Part shown: in pieces, positions 1,369 to 40,644 of the stretch
Layout: every line of letters starts with the position of its first letter
Position numbering within the stretch: position 1 is the stretch's first letter
IMG/VR virus record: IMGVR_UViG_2561511241_000001
Coordinates: 1 to 40,644 of that record
From: a virus
Taxonomy: Duplodnaviria > Heunggongvirae > Uroviricota > Caudoviricetes
Direction: 5' to 3' (one strand)
Length of the DNA: 40,644 nt
The notes under the pieces: model-generated
What the model saw: the letters and a program-made list of their open reading frames with translations, nothing else
The model's database searches: none
Told to the model about the DNA's origin: nothing
Position numbers and translations under genes: made by a program

Positions 1369-1444
1369 GCCGATATAGCTCAGTTGGTAGAGCAGCGCAT
1401 TCGTAATGCGAAGGTCGTAGGTTCGACTCCTATTATCGGCACCA
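1369..1444 (+). tRNA. thrW: tRNA-Thr (anticodon CGU)
   Basis: 76 nt GCCGATATAGCTCAGTTGGTAGAGCAGCGCATTCGTAATGCGAAGGTCGTAGGTTCGACTCCTATTATCGGCACCA; anticodon loop TTCGTAA; T-arm GGTTCGACTCC; 3' CCA encoded. Confidence 0.9.
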
Positions 1445-1458: not shown

Positions 1459-2622
1459 TTACACATCATTAGTACCTTCCTTATTTTTTGACTGGGACAA
1501 ATTTGGGACCGATGGGTTCAGGATCGAGTCTATTTGCCGTGCGTGTTCGGTAAGGTGATTAGGTGCAAGGTGAGCATATCGACGAACCATTTCGATAGAC
1601 TCCCAGCCTCCCATTTCCTGTAACACTGACAACGGGACTCCGGCTTGAACCAGCCAACTTGCCCAGGTGTGTCTCAAGTCGTGAAATCTGAAATCATCAA
1701 TACCAGCCCGTCTCAGCGCCGCTTTCCAGGCTGTGTTTGCGTCATACCGCATCTTCCTTACTGTTGGCGCTTTCGTTCCGTCTGGTTTGGTACAGCTTTC
1801 CTTGTACACAAATACCCAACGGTGATGATTCCCGATTTGTTTTTTCAATACGCGACATGCAGTATCATTCAGCGCAACGCCAATTGCGCGGTTTGATTTA
1901 CTCTCTTCCGGGTTTATCCATGCCACCCGGCGCTGCATATCTATTTGTTGCCATTCAAGGTTGATGATGTTCGAGCGTCTTAAGCCTGTTGCCAGTGCAA
2001 ATTCAACAACAGACTTTAATGGCTCCGGACATTCATCAATCAGCCTTTGTGCTTCATGGGGCTCCAGCCAGCGGATCCGTTTATTCTTTGGTTGAGGCAC
2101 TTTAATAATTGGTGCCTTATCCAGCATTTTCCATTCACGCTCTGCGGCTCTTAGTAGGGCCTTTATAAATGAAAGATGCGTAGCCTTCGTTGCAACGGAC
2201 GCTGGTTTTGGCGTGTATTCTGGAACAGGTTTCCCTTTTTTTCTGCATGCTTCTGCCCTGAGTTTCCAGTTTTCCTCATGACGCCGGTTCGTCATTTTCT
2301 GCATTGCTGAATAAATTTTTGATTCAGTAATGTCTCTTAGTTGCATTCCTGCGAAATGTTGAAGCCAGAATCCGATCCGGCTTTTGTCATCGTCCAGTGA
2401 TTTTTTATGTGCTTTCTCTTCAAGCCACCTGACACACGCTTCCTCGAACGTTATATCAGGTATTTCACCAAGTTTGCTGACCCGCCATGCTTCAGCCTTT
2501 AGCTTGTCATGGAGTTCTGTCGCCTGCCTTTTGTCCTTTGTTCCAAGAGACTGTTTAAATCTTTTACCGTTCGGCAATGTGAAACTGGCGTACCATATTT
2601 CACCTCTGCGGAAGAGTGACAT
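1459..2622 (-). CDS. int: tyrosine integrase (P22/SfV-type, thrW-specific)
   Basis: 387 aa; [34 protein letters not shown]... matches my recollection of P22 Int; C-terminal catalytic region [15 protein letters not shown]...MVRRYAHL (R-H-R-Y signature); GAGGAAA RBS; adjacent to att. Confidence 0.9.
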
Positions 2623-11384: not shown

Positions 11385-11401
11385 TTTTGTGGAGAAGGTT
11401 G

Positions 11402-11755
11402 ATGCGTGATATGTATGAAGTTTTGGACCGCTGGGGAGCATGGGCGGCAGCAGATAACAGTGGTGTGGACTGGCAACCGATAGCTGCAGGCTTCAAGGGG
11501 CTTTTACCTCATGGCAAAAAGTCTCGCCTCCAGTGCGAGGATGATGAAGGAATTATAATTGATGGATGTGTAGCCAGGTTGCGTAAATATAAGTCAGAAG
11601 ATTACGAGCTGATAATCGCCCACTTTGTTATTGGAATTTCGCTCCGTACAATTGCAAAGAAGCGGAAATGTTCTGATGGTACTTTACGTAAAGAATTGAT
11701 TGGCGCTATAGCTTTCATTGAAGGGGTAATGTCAATGATTAAATTTTCTGATTAG
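11402..11755 (+). CDS. late-gene antiterminator Q-like protein
   Basis: MRDMYEVLDRWGAWAAADNSGVDWQPIAAGFKGLLP...QCEDDEGIIIDGCVARL matches my recollection of the short Q antiterminator family; GGAGAAGG RBS; last gene before the lysis region. Confidence 0.65.
   Translation: MRDMYEVLDRWGAWAAADNSGVDWQPIAAGFKGLLPHGKKSRLQCEDDEGIIIDGCVARLRKYKSEDYELIIAHFVIGISLRTIAKKRKCSDGTLRKELIGAIAFIEGVMSMIKFSD
11718..11745 (+). promoter_or_regulatory. candidate late promoter (pR'-like)
   Basis: TTGAAG (11718-11723), 16 bp spacer, TAAATT (11740-11745) overlapping the 3' end of Q; the -10 is identical to the lambda pR' -10 from recall. Alternative pR' location upstream of 13290 not excluded. Confidence 0.3.
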
Positions 11756-11760
11756 ATAAA

Positions 11761-11782
11761 AAGGGCGGGGGTTCCCGCCCTT
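11761..11782 (-). terminator. rho-independent terminator of the TIR-caspase operon
   Basis: AAGGGCGGG-GGTT-CCCGCCCTT (9 bp GC-rich stem) followed on the minus strand by TTTTTATCT, 4 nt after the caspase stop. Confidence 0.55.
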
Positions 11783-11785
11783 AAT

Positions 11786-12751
11786 TCAGAATCGCCCTTT
11801 TATTGCTAAATTACGATAATAAACACCTAATGCAGTAAGTCGGCATCCAGTTGAATTTATCGCAGCATAGTACATATGTTCAGTATCAACCGGCTCAACC
11901 AGTCCGTGGCGGTTACATTTTTGTAGATTTTGAAAAATTGATACATTTTCATCAATCGGTGATTCGGAAGTTGGTTCAAAGCTAGGATCTAAATGGAATA
12001 CATGTGTAGCTGTTGGGAACCATACGGGCAATTTGCGAAGAGTATCCAAAGACACTCTTGGTCCTACCTCTCTCAGAACAACAAATCGAGAAACATTTGT
12101 TTTAAAGACTGGGCGCTGATCCCACGCCCCCAATGCTTGATCCACAAAGCTATACAGACTACTTGGAGTAATATAACCTAATATATTAGCTCCTGCGCCA
12201 TACAAAGCTTCGACCATTAATGAAGTAAATACTCCACCATCATTAACTTCTTTGGCATACTCATCTCGTCTACATGCAGTAAGGATGGTAGAGCCATCTG
12301 CAAGTACAGTTTCTCCTCCTTTTAGCATTCTTTCCTGGCCAGCGGCCCCAGCCTGACAGCAGTCGAGAATAATAATTTTATTGCGTATGTTAGTTGCTTT
12401 ATTAGCCCAAACCATAACATCACTTATTCTTATGCCATTACTTGATCTTGGCGAAAAGTCATGTGGAATCAACATTCCTTCATCAATGTTATTATCAAAA
12501 TATCCATGTCCAGCAAAGTAAAATAATGCAACATCACACTCTCCAGAAAAAAGATTCTGAATTTCATATTCAAGGAAATCTTTGTTGAGGGGGGTTGCAC
12601 TACAGTGTGTAAGTGTTCTAGCCTCGAAATTAGGCCTCCCATCGGCGTGTCTAGATAATGCTTCTGCCATTTTTGCAGCATCATTTTCACATCCGCTGAG
12701 AGCATCTAATTCAGCATACTCATTGATCCCAATAAATAGTGCTTTTTTCAT
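11786..12751 (-). CDS. caspase-like cysteine protease (peptidase C14/CHAT-like) with ~100 aa C-terminal extension
   Basis: 321 aa from MKKALFIGINEY (AGGAG RBS 7 nt upstream, overlapping the TIR gene stop); caspase-fold signatures ALFIGINEYA, FYFAGHGY (His82) and IIILDCCQAG (Cys131/132); visibly AT-rich. Confidence 0.75.
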   Translation of the reverse strand: MKKALFIGINEYAELDALSGCENDAAKMAEALSRHADGRPNFEARTLTHCSATPLNKDFLEYEIQNLFSGECDVALFYFAGHGYFDNNIDEGMLIPHDFSPRSSNGIRISDVMVWANKATNIRNKIIILDCCQAGAAGQERMLKGGETVLADGSTILTACRRDEYAKEVNDGGVFTSLMVEALYGAGANILGYITPSSLYSFVDQALGAWDQRPVFKTNVSRFVVLREVGPRVSLDTLRKLPVWFPTATHVFHLDPSFEPTSESPIDENVSIFQNLQKCNRHGLVEPVDTEHMYYAAINSTGCRLTALGVYYRNLAIKGRF

Positions 12752-12761
12752 ATGGAAGCTC

Positions 12762-13163
12762 CTAAGCCAGCTCACGAATGGCAGAAACGATGCTTTCTGT
12801 ATTCCACTTGACGATTTTGTGAGCGGCTTGCTTAACTTTCATAGACGTACGCTCGGAGCCCCAAGGCTCAATGGCAATAATTGGCTTTCTATATTCTTGA
12901 GCTATTCGGATCTCTGCATCAATCCATTTGCTGTAGCTGGCATATACACCAGCCAAAATAATTACAACACTTGATGGTGCCATTTGTGATCTTATAGCAG
13001 AGTAAAGTGCAAAATCATCTTGGGCACCAATTATTGGATCAACTCTGGGTACCGAGTAGTTCTTAAAGTTGAAATACCCACGATTCTTGAGAAGAGCCAC
13101 AAGCTGTTCATAAGTGTTTGAATATTTCCAAGAGTGACTAATAAATAGATTAAAAGTTCTCAT
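12762..13163 (-). CDS. TIR-like domain protein (ThsB/DUF1863-like)
   Basis: 133 aa; N-terminal FNLFISHSWKYS (TIR-like beta-A motif), WIDAE (W80-x3-E84, candidate catalytic Glu); GGAGAG RBS; first gene of a two-gene operon with the caspase-like gene. Confidence 0.7.
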   Translation of the reverse strand: MRTFNLFISHSWKYSNTYEQLVALLKNRGYFNFKNYSVPRVDPIIGAQDDFALYSAIRSQMAPSSVVIILAGVYASYSKWIDAEIRIAQEYRKPIIAIEPWGSERTSMKVKQAAHKIVKWNTESIVSAIRELA

Positions 13164-13289
13164 AAACTCTCCATTTTAAGGAAGTGAAGTAAGTACATTC
13201 TTCTCTTAGAAATAAAAATATCAAATCTATTCACGCGTACGCAAAAAGTATTGTATCGTATTAAGAGTGGTTAGTTCGCCACACAGCTT

Positions 13290-13313
13290 AAAACCCGCCG
13301 TCGAGCGGGTTTT
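13290..13313. terminator. symmetric hairpin terminator (candidate tR'-like / insulator)
   Basis: AAAACCCGC-CGTCGA-GCGGGTTTT, a perfect inverted repeat flanked by an A-run and a T-run, between the TIR gene start and the holin. Confidence 0.4.
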
Positions 13314-13464
13314 GTCGTTTCTGGATCCGGCTATTTGTTGAGCTTGGTCTATACCGCAGTTATCCATTGGCTCGGCTTCTTTTACGTTTCCGCTTCTGAT
13401 TTGCGGTTCGTGGTACACCCTCAATTTGCACCTCCTTTATCGGCGAGGTGAGAGATAACTACAA

Positions 13465-13791
13465 ATGCCTCATAACCCAAATACCTGGCTGGAGTTGGTA
13501 CAGAGCTGGTGGCGTGGAGACACACCACTGGGCGCAGTAATTATGTCGATCGTTATGGCTGGTTTACGTATTGCCTATTTTGGTGGCGGTGGCGGCTGGA
13601 AGCGAAAAACGCTCGAGATTTTGCTCTGTGGCGCTCTGACACTGACCTTTGCATCCGCGCTTGAGTATGTCGGATGGCCTAAATCACTTTCTGTTGCTAT
13701 TGGTGGTGGGGTGGGGCTGATCGGGGTCGATGCTATTCGTGGTGCGGCAATGAGAGTAATCGGTAACAAGTTTGGTAGCTCGAAGGAGTAA
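13465..13791 (+). CDS. holin
   Basis: 108 aa with three hydrophobic helices and a charged C-terminus, immediately upstream of the endolysin. Confidence 0.65.
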   Translation: MPHNPNTWLELVQSWWRGDTPLGAVIMSIVMAGLRIAYFGGGGGWKRKTLEILLCGALTLTFASALEYVGWPKSLSVAIGGGVGLIGVDAIRGAAMRVIGNKFGSSKE

Positions 13792-14810: not shown

Positions 14811-15437
14811 TCAGTTGTCAAATGAATATACGTTAAAGGTATATGTCGACATAATTTCACCAAGTACCTCAATACATATACTTTTTTTATGAAAGATACT
14901 GGGGAAGGAACTTAGCTCTTCAAGGCATTTCACATAAGTGCTGATATCACTTGCATCACGTTCAAGGAATTTCACTTGGCCAAAAGAAGGAGTATTAATC
15001 CTAGTTCTTTGCTGGATTATATGGATAAAATGTGTAGTTGGTGAAACTATTACTCTTGAAATATCGGAAATGATGTCTTCTTGAACTTGCCGATAAAGTA
15101 AATCCTTTGGGTAATGGTGTTTGATCTCGATGGTTGCAACATTGCCATTATGTTCAGACGTTAATATCGACTGGTTATAAAGTGATATGTCAACAGCGCC
15201 GATACCGAGTTTTGGATGCTCACTTAAAGCAGTTAGTGTGCTGATTTGATTGAGAATAACAACTAACTCATCACGTATTTGAGTTTCATGTTTGCGATTG
15301 TAGAAGTAGCAATTCAGTTCATTTAACTTTTTATGCATCCTATCGTGACTAATTGCTTCGATCAGTAAATCCTGAATCATACTTTTCTCTAGGTAATCCG
15401 AACGGTTGTAAGTGACAGTATTGTGCTGGCATGTCAT
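14811..15437 (-). CDS. hypothetical protein (AT-rich cargo, second gene of two-gene module)
   Basis: 208 aa ORF, visibly AT-rich, opposite strand to flanking phage genes; no family recognised; alternative start at MIQDLL (15380). Confidence 0.5.
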   Translation of the reverse strand: MTCQHNTVTYNRSDYLEKSMIQDLLIEAISHDRMHKKLNELNCYFYNRKHETQIRDELVVILNQISTLTALSEHPKLGIGAVDISLYNQSILTSEHNGNVATIEIKHHYPKDLLYRQVQEDIISDISRVIVSPTTHFIHIIQQRTRINTPSFGQVKFLERDASDISTYVKCLEELSSFPSIFHKKSICIEVLGEIMSTYTFNVYSFDN

Positions 15438-15480
15438 TAGTATGTAAAGGTATTGTGAATGCCAGCAAGATAACGAAGTA

Positions 15481-15816
15481 TCATCGATAGAAAAACTTTA
15501 CGGCCCACTCGTAAACCGCTTTGTAAATCGGTTCATGGTAAATACTATCGATACTATTCAGATGTGCGATCATCGCCTCCACAGTTGTAGTGGTTGTTTC
15601 TAATATTTCGATTATTGCAGGGCGGTCATCATCTTCATCGAAGTATTCGAACAGCAGTACAGGTTTACCATGCCATTCAGCATCTGAGACTCTAAGGTTA
15701 CAACTACCGCTCAACTCAAAGTGAATTTTGTAATTACCTTCTACAGAATGGCCTACGGGGAAAAAGCATAGGGTGTCATCTTTGTTTAAAAGCCATTCCC
15801 ATTCATAACTATTCAT
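15481..15816 (-). CDS. hypothetical protein (AT-rich cargo, first gene of two-gene module)
   Basis: 111 aa from MNSYEWEWL (AGGAG RBS 7 nt upstream); acidic patch FEYFDEDDDRP; no family recognised. Confidence 0.5.
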   Translation of the reverse strand: MNSYEWEWLLNKDDTLCFFPVGHSVEGNYKIHFELSGSCNLRVSDAEWHGKPVLLFEYFDEDDDRPAIIEILETTTTTVEAMIAHLNSIDSIYHEPIYKAVYEWAVKFFYR

Positions 15817-15966
15817 TTGTGAACTCCTGTTCATTGAGTTTCAACAACTATCAACTACATCCAGCGAAGCATAAAAGATCGTTTATGGCAAAACCGGAGT
15901 GGAGTGCGATTCGATTCTGAGAAGGATGCCACGTATCGCACGCGAACCATCCAAGAGGATTATGCA

Positions 15967-36810: not shown

Positions 36811-39621
36811 TTATTTTTTTAGAGATTGCATTCGTTCATTGAATATGTCCAATGTGTCTTGAAATTCAACAAAGCCTCTATCCTTTATAAGGCTTTTAAT
36901 TAAGTTAGGAAAATCACTTTCTACACCAGCTGTAATGAAATCTAACTCGCCTAATTTATTCGGGATGTTTTCAGAAACAAATTTGTTAATAACCTCAAGA
37001 AATTGATCAGGCATGGCACATCCGCTTGCGACTAAATGCAAACATTCCATAATATCGCTTACTGTTGCCAGTGGTAGGTTTAAAATATTACTGTTAATAA
37101 ACTTGTCTATAATGTCAACGACCTCAGGAGAGCCAATCCTTTTGATGTTCAATAATAAACTCTTAGTGATGGATCTTTTCCACTTATCATCAAATAATTG
37201 TATTTTTGTTAACGCTAATGTTAATAGTTCAGTGTTTTTGTATTCGTAATTATGATTCTCTGATAATATGTAAATGTTTCGTAAGATATTGGAGTTAATT
37301 ACATGCTGGTCATAACCATTTAACTCTCCTGTATTGATTTTTATAAGTATTACATCCAGGATTTTTAACATATCATCATGGGATTTTTGATACAAAAACT
37401 CATTCACAGCTAGAAGATTATGTATGTTTTCATAAATATTTATGTTATTAGTTCTGCCTTCTAACAAAGGAAGCAAACCATTTATTATTTTCTTTAACTG
37501 GTTTGAACTCCACGGAACACATCCTAATATAATCAATAAATTATTGGTCCATCGATCTATTGAAGTGGTATGAATAAAATTTTTATTTTTCAACCTAATC
37601 AGGTTGCATATGTTTTCGAGAGAGTTGAGTAAATATTTCTTAATATGGTGAACTTCTCTTTTGTCAAGTTTGCTGGTGCTGATTATTATTTTGTCTTTTA
37701 TTACCTTACTTAAAAATTTTTTGAGTTTTTCTGTCTCGCAGTATTTTATTAACATAAATAGATCGATTCTATTAACATAGAATATCTCTTCGCATAGATA
37801 GTGTTCGAGGCTACTAAGAATATTAAATTCGAAAAATTGTTTAACCTCTTTATATTCTTCAATTAAAATTTCGTTGCCTAAAATGAAATACACATAAGGG
37901 TACAGTTTCGCTCTTGTTTTAAATTCATCATTGGAAAATGCTATTCCACCACTCTTTCTTATTTGTGAGTACCCTAAATTCTTCTTCGATTCAACGTCAA
38001 ATCGATAGTAAGCTTTGTATATTTCATTAAATTCAAGCATCTTTACTAATTCTTGTAGCTCACTTTGCACCCCCCGTGGAAAATCAATTATTTTACTTTT
38101 AAACTCAAATGGAGTATGGCTTTCCATTATTGATTTACAATCTTCATCAATGTCCTTACCGTTACAGTGTAAATCCGACTTCAACATCCTGTAAGCATAA
38201 TCAAAATTAGACATGTGAATGGTGGCGAGAATATAGTTTCTCTCATTAAGATGAAGCTTTACTTTCGAAATAAGAATATCGAGAAGTTTGCCATATTCCT
38301 TGTTAATAAGAAGTATTTCAGCATTATCCTTTGAATAAGCGAAAGAAATCTTATTGTATAGCTCAGACTCTAATTCTGAAGAACTAATCACCTCATACAG
38401 TTTCGAGTCATAACTAACTGTATTTATAAATGCCTTTTCCAAAATAGATGAGAATGTCTTTTTTAAGTGAGTATTTTTACTCAAAATGTCATTAAGGTAT
38501 ATGCTATTTATTTTCCTGCTATACTCGTCATAATCAGTCGTCAAAATATTATTGTGGGAGGTTAGTTTAACCCCAGACTTATCATAATCAATGGTACTAT
38601 TAGTTAATTTTTTACTGATCTGCTCAGGGAGCAATACTTTGTATTGTGTTAATGCTTTTAGTTTGCTATCAACATATTTATTTATTTTTTTTGTTACAAT
38701 ACATTGAATATCATTCTTCAATTTATTTTTATCAAAATCAGACATTCTCAGGTCATCTTCTATTTTTTTTACCTTTGACTCAGTATAGATCAGGGTCCTC
38801 TTTATAAACTCATCTTGGTTTTTAACAAGCTTGAAATCACTGAAAAATTTTGAATAAAGATCATGATAGCTAATGTCAGTATTCATCGGTGTCAACAAGG
38901 ATATCCCATGATTTCTTAAGTAAAGAGCCTGGGCTGCATCATGATTTTTCTGGAGCAAATATTTTCTTGGTGTTGCTTTTGATATAGTTGTAACCCATGA
39001 AACAATCTGTTTTAAATCATAATCACTATAAGAGTATCCTAAAAACACAACAGTGTTTGTTGAGAATATTCCTTTTATAAAATTTTCGATAAGTGGAAAA
39101 TTTTGGCTGTACTGTAAGTAATCATCCTCTTTAAAAACAAAATTATTCTGTCGAAAATCCCCATGCATCTTTATAATTTTCTTGTCCAAATGACTTTGTG
39201 CCAGGTCCACGTCAGAACTAACTAAATCATAAGCCAATCCTATGTCTTGTGCAGTTTTTTCAAGCAAACTATCCCAGTTGGTTGTAATTATATAGTGGGG
39301 GTTTAATTCAAATAGCATCTTATGAAAAAGACTTGGTTTCAAATCTCTAATTATTGATTTGACTTTTTTAACATAAGAGTTTTGTCCGTATTGAAGAAAG
39401 TAAAGTTGGGCTATTTTTAAATAATCATTTTCTTCAGACAATCCTAAGTCGTCTTTTAGCTCATTTATTAACTCCCTCCAGGTTGGTATTTTTATTAATT
39501 CCGTTTCGCTGAATTTAGAAAAACCAGCACCAATAAAAAGAACTAACTTATTATCTTGACTGGCATTCAATATTTCGTTCAAGTCATATTCAGAAAAAGA
39601 AAGTGGATTTAAATTTATCAT
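36811..39621 (-). CDS. large SIR2-domain protein (DSR-like candidate antiphage NADase)
   Basis: 936 aa; N-terminal SIR2 signatures LVLFIGAGFS (GAGxS), ITTNWD (TTN-aromatic-D) and KMHGDF (catalytic His); ~700 aa C-terminal region of unknown fold; very AT-rich; opposite strand, between pin and attR. Confidence 0.75.
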   Translation of the reverse strand: MINLNPLSFSEYDLNEILNASQDNKLVLFIGAGFSKFSETELIKIPTWRELINELKDDLGLSEENDYLKIAQLYFLQYGQNSYVKKVKSIIRDLKPSLFHKMLFELNPHYIITTNWDSLLEKTAQDIGLAYDLVSSDVDLAQSHLDKKIIKMHGDFRQNNFVFKEDDYLQYSQNFPLIENFIKGIFSTNTVVFLGYSYSDYDLKQIVSWVTTISKATPRKYLLQKNHDAAQALYLRNHGISLLTPMNTDISYHDLYSKFFSDFKLVKNQDEFIKRTLIYTESKVKKIEDDLRMSDFDKNKLKNDIQCIVTKKINKYVDSKLKALTQYKVLLPEQISKKLTNSTIDYDKSGVKLTSHNNILTTDYDEYSRKINSIYLNDILSKNTHLKKTFSSILEKAFINTVSYDSKLYEVISSSELESELYNKISFAYSKDNAEILLINKEYGKLLDILISKVKLHLNERNYILATIHMSNFDYAYRMLKSDLHCNGKDIDEDCKSIMESHTPFEFKSKIIDFPRGVQSELQELVKMLEFNEIYKAYYRFDVESKKNLGYSQIRKSGGIAFSNDEFKTRAKLYPYVYFILGNEILIEEYKEVKQFFEFNILSSLEHYLCEEIFYVNRIDLFMLIKYCETEKLKKFLSKVIKDKIIISTSKLDKREVHHIKKYLLNSLENICNLIRLKNKNFIHTTSIDRWTNNLLIILGCVPWSSNQLKKIINGLLPLLEGRTNNINIYENIHNLLAVNEFLYQKSHDDMLKILDVILIKINTGELNGYDQHVINSNILRNIYILSENHNYEYKNTELLTLALTKIQLFDDKWKRSITKSLLLNIKRIGSPEVVDIIDKFINSNILNLPLATVSDIMECLHLVASGCAMPDQFLEVINKFVSENIPNKLGELDFITAGVESDFPNLIKSLIKDRGFVEFQDTLDIFNERMQSLKK

Positions 39622-40233: not shown

Positions 40234-40644
40234 TTAAGCCAATTGCTGCCGCCATTCCTTGACGTGGTCAATCAGGGCGCGGAGCTTTGGTGCAATATTG
40301 CGACGCTGTGGGAAATACAGATAGAAGCCTGGAAATTGTGGAAGAAAGTCATCAAGCAGCGATACAAGCTTACCGCTTTCAATATATGGCCTGAAAGTTT
40401 CCTGAGTGGCAATTGTTATTCCTCCGCCGGCAAGAGCCAGCCTCAACATCAGACGCAGATCATTAGTCGTAATCTGCGGTTCAATCGCAAGGTCGAAAGT
40501 TCTCCCGTTTTCTTCAAATGGCCAGCGATAAGGCGCAACCTCCGGGGACTGACGCCAGCCGATACACTTATGGGTATTTCCCCCGGAGGCGAGAAAGCGC
40601 TCTCCACGCCCGGCCGCAAGGATCAGGACGACGGGGGCAGGCAT
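40234..40644 (-). CDS. LysR-family transcriptional regulator, C-terminal part (5' end outside window)
   Basis: C-terminus PGFYLYFPQRRNIAPKLRALIDHVKEW is the LysR effector-domain tail; the ORF runs to the window edge. Confidence 0.55.
   Translation of the reverse strand: MPAPVVLILAAGRGERFLASGGNTHKCIGWRQSPEVAPYRWPFEENGRTFDLAIEPQITTNDLRLMLRLALAGGGITIATQETFRPYIESGKLVSLLDDFLPQFPGFYLYFPQRRNIAPKLRALIDHVKEWRQQLA

Follow-up and report, generated by a model that had tools for sequence, protein, structure and literature searches.

The two-gene locus found in the 40,644-nucleotide stretch of viral DNA analysed here (hereafter the window) is almost certainly the already published TIR-caspase system of Escherichia coli known as type IV Thoeris, carried on a prophage. 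The system is already known, having been published in 2024-2025, and the locus in the window is a founding member of it and not a discovery. The founding paper (Rousset et al., Science 387:510, 2025; bioRxiv 10.1101/2024.10.24.620036) describes the operon of E. coli 328, whose assembly is GCA_000503435.1 and which encodes EcTIR and EcCaspase, and that of Pseudomonas sp. 1-7, encoding PsTIR and PsCaspase, the latter being IMG gene 2600496627; effectors of the EcCaspase type are named ThsD or ThsE in later papers. A preliminary description of the window had read the gene pair as a TIR-signal-activated protease module for abortive infection, borne on a prophage as a moron, which is supported by the identity of the TIR gene with the published EcTIR gene, and had raised the question of membership in the reported TIR-caspase family: the locus is a member, and the idea that it might be new or distinct did not hold.

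The pair lies between the Q antiterminator gene and the holin gene, on the strand opposite to both, and RefSeq names its products a TIR domain-containing protein and a caspase family protein within a prophage. The elements of the locus are as follows.

11387-11755, plus strand: Q antiterminator gene (Phage_antitermQ, Pfam 1.8e-43)
11761-11782, minus strand: intrinsic terminator of the operon, with a 9-bp stem (7 G-C), a 4-nt loop and the T-rich tail TTTTATCT
11786-12751, minus strand: caspase-like effector gene (EcCaspase), ATG at 12751, 321 aa
12752-12766, minus strand: intercistronic junction, TAGGAGCTTCCATATG
12762-13163, minus strand: TIR gene (EcTIR, thsB-type), ATG start, 133 aa
13197-13224, minus strand: candidate sigma-70 promoter of the operon (TTGATA, 16 nt, AAGAAT; 9/12 consensus positions)
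13465-13791, plus strand: lambda-family holin gene (Pfam 5.7e-25)

The stop codon of the TIR gene and the ATG of the effector gene are 10 nt apart, and the ribosome-binding site of the effector (AGGAG, with a 7-nt spacer to the ATG) overlaps the TIR stop TAG; the TIR gene has a GGAG of its own 5 nt upstream of its ATG. Mechanical calling of open reading frames set the effector start at a GTG upstream of this ATG (12775), and the RefSeq start is the ATG. Between the two genes, a sequence scan detected nothing resembling a promoter or a terminator, consistent with one transcript, and the arrangement of the junction implies a predicted single transcript with coupled translation. The candidate promoter, recognised by consensus match only, lies ~35 nt upstream of the TIR ATG, and the terminator occupies the 30-nt gap opposite the convergent Q gene, directly 3' of the effector gene. 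The GC content of the operon is ~0.39 versus 0.55 in summary figures (0.38-0.43 over positions 11600-13400), the phage genes upstream having 0.53-0.59 and those for lysis ~0.50. The layout given in the preliminary description, namely two minus-strand genes 10 nt apart with AGGAG over the upstream stop, a strong terminator, and AT-rich DNA placed antisense between Q and the lysis cassette, was confirmed in the sequence, its GC content and the Pfam matches of the flanking genes, and the motifs that it had listed (FISHSW at residue 7 and WIDAE in the TIR protein, FYFAGHG and LDCCQAG in the effector) all occur at the positions given there.

Over the whole TIR coding sequence (12765-13163, minus strand), the window matches the EcTIR + EcCaspase construct of Rousset et al., cloned from E. 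coli 328, at 399 of 399 nucleotides, a comparison that covers EcTIR. The effector is nevertheless very likely the same allele as E. coli 328 EcCaspase, as we infer from the identical TIR gene, from the 1601-bp region, which occurs in 14 of 5426 complete E. coli genomes and always at 99.9-100% identity, from the occurrence of the exact effector protein on 774 contigs (the exact TIR protein being on 841), and from the next most similar E. coli-sourced allele among the homologues listed (P0032), which is only 71% identical. The general traits of type IV Thoeris are also present: a short TIR gene is co-oriented with an adjacent caspase-like gene; the TIR protein matches ThsB (PF08937), one of the two profiles, with TIR_2 (PF13676), in the detection rule of Rousset et al.; the effector shows full-length homology, C-terminal domain included, by way of the 57-71% identical family described below; and the TIR glutamate and the protease His/Cys dyad are found by sequence alignment. 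Identity with a validated member thus extends over the TIR gene and, by the reasoning above, probably over the effector. The arrangement of type I Thoeris, a ThsA protein with SIR2 or TM plus SLOG beside ThsB, does not apply to the locus: the neighbour of the TIR gene is a Peptidase_C14 protein, and the effector gene gave no SIR2, SLOG or Macro match in Pfam and no SIR2 or SLOG match in PADLOC.

It might be argued that the locus is a related but functionally distinct TIR-caspase variant, with another TIR product or effector specificity and only the architecture in common, given that EcTIR and PsTIR have diverged beyond BLASTP detection and that, according to later work, TIRs of one sequence cluster can pair with different effectors. 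We consider this very unlikely, because the TIR gene does not differ by a single nucleotide from the published EcTIR gene, the source of the N7-cADPR that activates PsCaspase, and because the effector is ~60% identical, over its full length, to Pseudomonas effectors of the EcCaspase family.

The assignment to type IV Thoeris further draws on the predicted catalytic residues of the two proteins.

12912-12914, minus strand: codon of E84, the predicted catalytic Glu of EcTIR (WIDAE motif; aligned with PsTIR E79)
12506-12508, minus strand: codon of effector H82 (FYFAGHG motif; invariant in 20 homologues)
12359-12361, minus strand: codon of effector C131 (LDCCQAG motif; invariant in 20 homologues)
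12356-12358, minus strand: codon of effector C132 (LDCCQAG motif; invariant in 20 homologues)

Profile searches, which the preliminary description had proposed as a check on both domains, recovered each of them. EcTIR matched Pfam ThsB_TIR (PF08937) at 3.9e-18 (66.1 bits, cut-off 21.2), its residues 7-104 covering positions 1-99 of the 100-position profile, and gave 2e-12 with the best of several matching PADLOC ThsB models, and EcCaspase matched Pfam Peptidase_C14 at 1.2e-17 and the PADLOC caspase model at 1.6e-19. E-values of this order (Pfam 4e-18 and 1e-17; PADLOC 2e-12 and 1.6e-19) argue that the TIR and caspase assignments are not due to chance. The only NCBIfam match of the effector, to caspase_w_EACC1, reached 89.5 bits where the cut-off is 140 and places EcCaspase outside that subfamily. 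In sequence searches of the PDB neither protein had a close relative, the best matches being MTH538 for the TIR protein (1.3e-05) and a T. brucei metacaspase for the effector (~6e-03).

No BLASTP-detectable similarity links EcTIR with PsTIR (E = 15), and their global alignment sets E84 on E79 (z = 4.4 versus a shuffle control). The choice of E84 as the catalytic residue in the preliminary description therefore gains from the finding that PsTIR E79Q, like PsCaspase C129A, abolished defence (Rousset et al.), the equivalence of the two glutamates being based on this global alignment (z = 4.4) together with the Pfam match. According to the same paper, EcTIR and PsTIR share the signal N7-cADPR despite the lack of BLASTP similarity, and the effectors form one well-conserved family. 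Of the two halves, the one that senses infection and makes the signal either evolves much faster than the effector or has been swapped.

The AlphaFold2 model of full-length EcCaspase was of moderate confidence (mean pLDDT 66), and its use in the structure search that had been suggested for the effector returned a caspase fold, Foldseek ranking MALT1 paracaspase first (1.9e-09) and caspases and metacaspases next. The paracaspase and the metacaspases represent the arginine/lysine-specific branch, and the likeness of EcCaspase to them fits the reported cleavage after arginine. The His/Cys dyad proposed earlier also stood, with one refinement. In a profile of the 20 homologues, H82 aligned with the catalytic His of MCA2, a T. 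brucei metacaspase, and C132, not C131, fell on the nucleophile position, at which the crystallised MCA2 chains have Ala or Gly (FDCAHSG, FDCGHSG) and which we take to be the mutated nucleophile C213. On this alignment C132 is the likelier nucleophile, although C131 is equally invariant. The choice between the two cysteines is based on the metacaspase alignment.

A homology search with the effector among 5.8 billion proteins gave 6579 matches at E <= 1e-5, and almost all of the best 120 measure 317-344 aa. Among these 120, the homologues from outside E. coli align with 99-100% of the window protein at 57-71% identity, and the homologues listed include proteins of Pseudomonas sp. URMO17WK12:I11, Pseudomonas sp. 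Root329 and Vibrio parahaemolyticus; Table S1 of Rousset et al. lists the strains URMO17WK12:I11 and Root329 and the species V. parahaemolyticus. PsCaspase itself is absent from the best 120 of the 6579, and an exact-match scan of 100,044 species-representative genomes for the PsTIR/PsCaspase junction gave no match. The option of a distinct, shorter variant, entertained in the preliminary description, was rejected on the length distribution of the family, in which the window protein has the standard length, and is refuted by the end-to-end alignment. In an alignment of 20 sequences, conservation in the C-terminal third of the effector equals or exceeds that of the protease domain, conserved blocks including W..QRPVFKT.V, LQ.C.RH, EP, Y.AA, CRL and G.YY..LA. 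Residues C279, R281, H282, C303, R304, Y311 and Y312 of this part are invariant.

That the signal is sensed by the C-terminal domain, forming a pocket as a dimer, was proposed by Rousset et al. themselves, the preliminary description having likewise raised the C-terminal extension as a possible sensor; the addition made by our analysis is a winged-helix-like model of this part of the effector.

11789-12067, minus strand: effector C-terminal domain (residues 229-321), presumed to sense N7-cADPR and to mediate dimerisation

A separate model of residues 229-321, built with 40 homologues, has a helix/strand pattern with pLDDT above 90, and this domain of ~93 aa models confidently as a winged-helix-like fold, which by hypothesis would bind the signal. 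MarR-type winged-helix domains are dimeric ligand sensors, and the resemblance is therefore compatible with the published idea of a dimer pocket. A specific version, in which the MarR-like residues 229-321 would be the sensor, dimerising around N7-cADPR and thereby switching on the protease, is tentatively put forward here, as a possibility that we would not yet favour. To our knowledge, the winged-helix fold has not been linked to the sensing of cADPR isomers, and we know of no solved structure of the effector domain.

Residues 210-226 (12074-12124, minus strand; W-x-Q-R-P-V-F-K-T-x-V) are the most invariant stretch of the effector family, and had pLDDT below 50 in both AlphaFold runs. Judging by its position, this stretch may complete the caspase-fold sheet as its last strand and form the dimer interface, or alternatively it may be a regulatory segment. 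One of its invariant pairs is Arg-Pro, Arg being the residue after which the protease cuts.

The operons of E. coli 328 and Pseudomonas sp. 1-7 both reduced the infectivity of phage T6 in E. coli K-12, and the slight toxicity of the E. coli 328 operon on induction led to the choice of the Pseudomonas homologue for biochemistry (Rousset et al.). Infection at high multiplicity killed cells with the Pseudomonas system, and no progeny was released (Rousset et al.). In the same paper, PsCaspase was activated by small molecules taken from TIR-expressing cells after infection, EcTIR lysates being the more potent; the activator, purified from infected EcTIR cells, was identified by MS and NMR as N7-cADPR; and activated PsCaspase cut after arginine (P1) in many proteins, including EF-Tu and RplE. 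Follow-up literature reports that T4 Vs.3 (TadIV-1) is a sponge for N7-cADPR and that a mutation in the T6 capsid-vertex protein escapes the system, and in a later study the E. coli system defended when cloned with its native promoter. One E. coli operon consists of type IV Thoeris fused to a Pycsar system, and DefenseFinder already includes a Thoeris_IV model. For a TIR sequence identical to ours, defence of the operon against T6 and signal production by EcTIR have been shown in the literature; biochemistry of the protease, catalytic mutants that lose defence and an abortive-infection phenotype have been reported for the Pseudomonas homologue only, and by analogy the E. coli effector would be expected to behave like PsCaspase, including activation by N7-cADPR.

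Taken with these reports, the locus would act in four steps. In a lysogen, transcription of the operon would start at its own promoter and run antisense to the phage genes. Infection by a foreign phage, T6 for example, would then trigger the small ThsB-type TIR protein, which would convert NAD+ to N7-cADPR, an isomer of cyclic ADP-ribose, with E84 as the catalytic residue. This signal would activate the caspase-like effector, whose His82/Cys132 dyad would cut many proteins after arginine, EF-Tu and RplE among them. The infected cell would finally die or stop growing before completion of the phage cycle, and the lysogen population would be protected. The roles could in principle be reversed, with the caspase-like protein as sensor or activator and the TIR protein as an NAD+-depleting effector, since TIR domains are NADase effectors in several bacterial systems and the 133-aa TIR protein has no obvious separate sensor domain. 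However, small molecules from cells expressing the TIR protein alone activate the protease in lysate (Rousset et al.), and we give this reversal next to no credence relative to a TIR protein that signals to the protease.

The genomic setting of the operon is that of a prophage adjoining tRNA-Thr and proA.

1369-1444, plus strand: tRNA-Thr (CGT), downstream of proA
1459-2622, minus strand: prophage integrase gene, directly after tRNA-Thr

The junction of tRNA-Thr and integrase marks the left attachment site of the prophage. At the other end of the window, a fragment of a LysR-family gene (40234-40644, minus strand) is probably host DNA past the right end. Megablast of the 1.6-kb operon region against 50,697 GenBank phage records found no match, and no form of the element other than a prophage is known, even though both protein families are present in PHROGs (phrog_6988 and phrog_18397). 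The exact effector protein was examined in 10 distinct contexts, and in all 10 the operon is placed between Q and holin, including one carrier prophage in which a lambda-type Nu1/GpA terminase and Bor replace the P27-type terminase. The cargo, retained in this place despite the change of terminase, therefore travels with the Q-lysis module.

The constant position beside the lysis genes, together with the slight toxicity of the induced E. coli 328 operon, could also point to a prophage addiction module of toxin-antitoxin-like type or to a lysis-timing accessory with no anti-phage function. Such a role is exceedingly improbable in view of the published direct defence against T6 and of the phage counter-defence by a signal sponge, and the opposite strand and own terminator of the operon argue that it is not part of the late transcript. 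For the anti-phage system, the position may have consequences of another kind. The gap of ~300 nt between the TIR start and the holin gene (13164-13464) contains a plus-strand terminator-like hairpin at 13289-13314, with a 10-bp stem followed by TCGTTTCT, and a scan of the plus strand of this gap found no consensus promoter. The gap is possibly the region of the phage late promoter and tR', in which case Q and its target would flank the operon. A location between Q and the putative late promoter, with a shared terminator, could couple defence expression to the lysogenic or lytic state, and if so the Q-facing placement would spare the phage's own lytic cycle, a weaker possibility than that of the C-terminal sensor.

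The TIR-caspase operon is not the sole antisense cargo in its neighbourhood, and another cargo gene lies near the right end of the prophage.

14811-15834, minus strand: second antisense gene pair (208 aa and 117 aa; GC 0.35-0.40), between Rz/Rz1 and the HNH/terminase genes
36811-39621, minus strand: gene for a SIR2 protein of 936 aa at the right end of the prophage (N-terminal Pfam SIR2_2, 3.4e-24)

The gene pair had no Pfam or PADLOC match, its only matches being to the unknown-function PHROG families phrog_12494 and phrog_14397, and in other carriers of the operon the same slot holds other small genes, one 334-aa gene or lambda Bor; the pair could be uncharacterised exclusion or defence cargo. 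Residues 14-273 of the SIR2 protein match the SIR2 domain of B. subtilis DSR2 (6e-35), the remainder being unmatched, and the PADLOC ThsA profile matched in the SIR2 part only. This protein is probably a DSR2-like single-gene NADase defence, and as such a second defence cargo of known type. As a ThsA partner of the TIR protein it was rejected, being DSR2-like, devoid of a SLOG match and 24 kb away. A further antisense gene, in the tail module just past the tape-measure gene (28262-28666, minus strand), encodes a 134-aa OB-fold protein (tRNA_anti-like, 2.9e-16). The prophage can accordingly be described as having three cargo slots, occupied by type IV Thoeris, the uncharacterised gene pair and the DSR2-like SIR2 protein.

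Type IV Thoeris introduced a new second messenger, N7-cADPR, and joins, in bacterial immunity, signalling by TIR proteins to proteolysis of the caspase type, in an echo of the innate immunity of animals. The window offers a natural genomic context for questions of C-terminal sensing, of the TIR trigger and of how a carrier prophage avoids or exploits its cargo. In comparison with known systems, EcCaspase shares its fold and His/Cys dyad with MALT1 paracaspase and the metacaspases (clan CD, C14), T. brucei MCA2 being its best sequence match (2.4e-06), but identity to these proteins is only 14-20%, and in place of death, Ig or Ca2+-regulatory domains it has the winged-helix-like C-terminus of ~93 aa and activation by a nucleotide. 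With the Thoeris systems that use 1''-3' gcADPR or His-ADPR, the locus has in common the pathway from a ThsB-type TIR sensor through an NAD-derived messenger to a cell-killing effector, and differs from them in its N7-cADPR signal, its protease effector and its sensor domain. The type IV system of Pseudomonas sp. 1-7 has a like architecture and signal, and EcTIR metabolites activate PsCaspase; the TIR proteins, however, lack BLASTP similarity, and the Pseudomonas genes overlap (TGATG) whereas those of the window are separated by the 10-nt gap. From the type IV Thoeris of E. coli 328 the locus has no detectable difference, the two having an identical TIR, the same order from TIR to caspase and the same host species.
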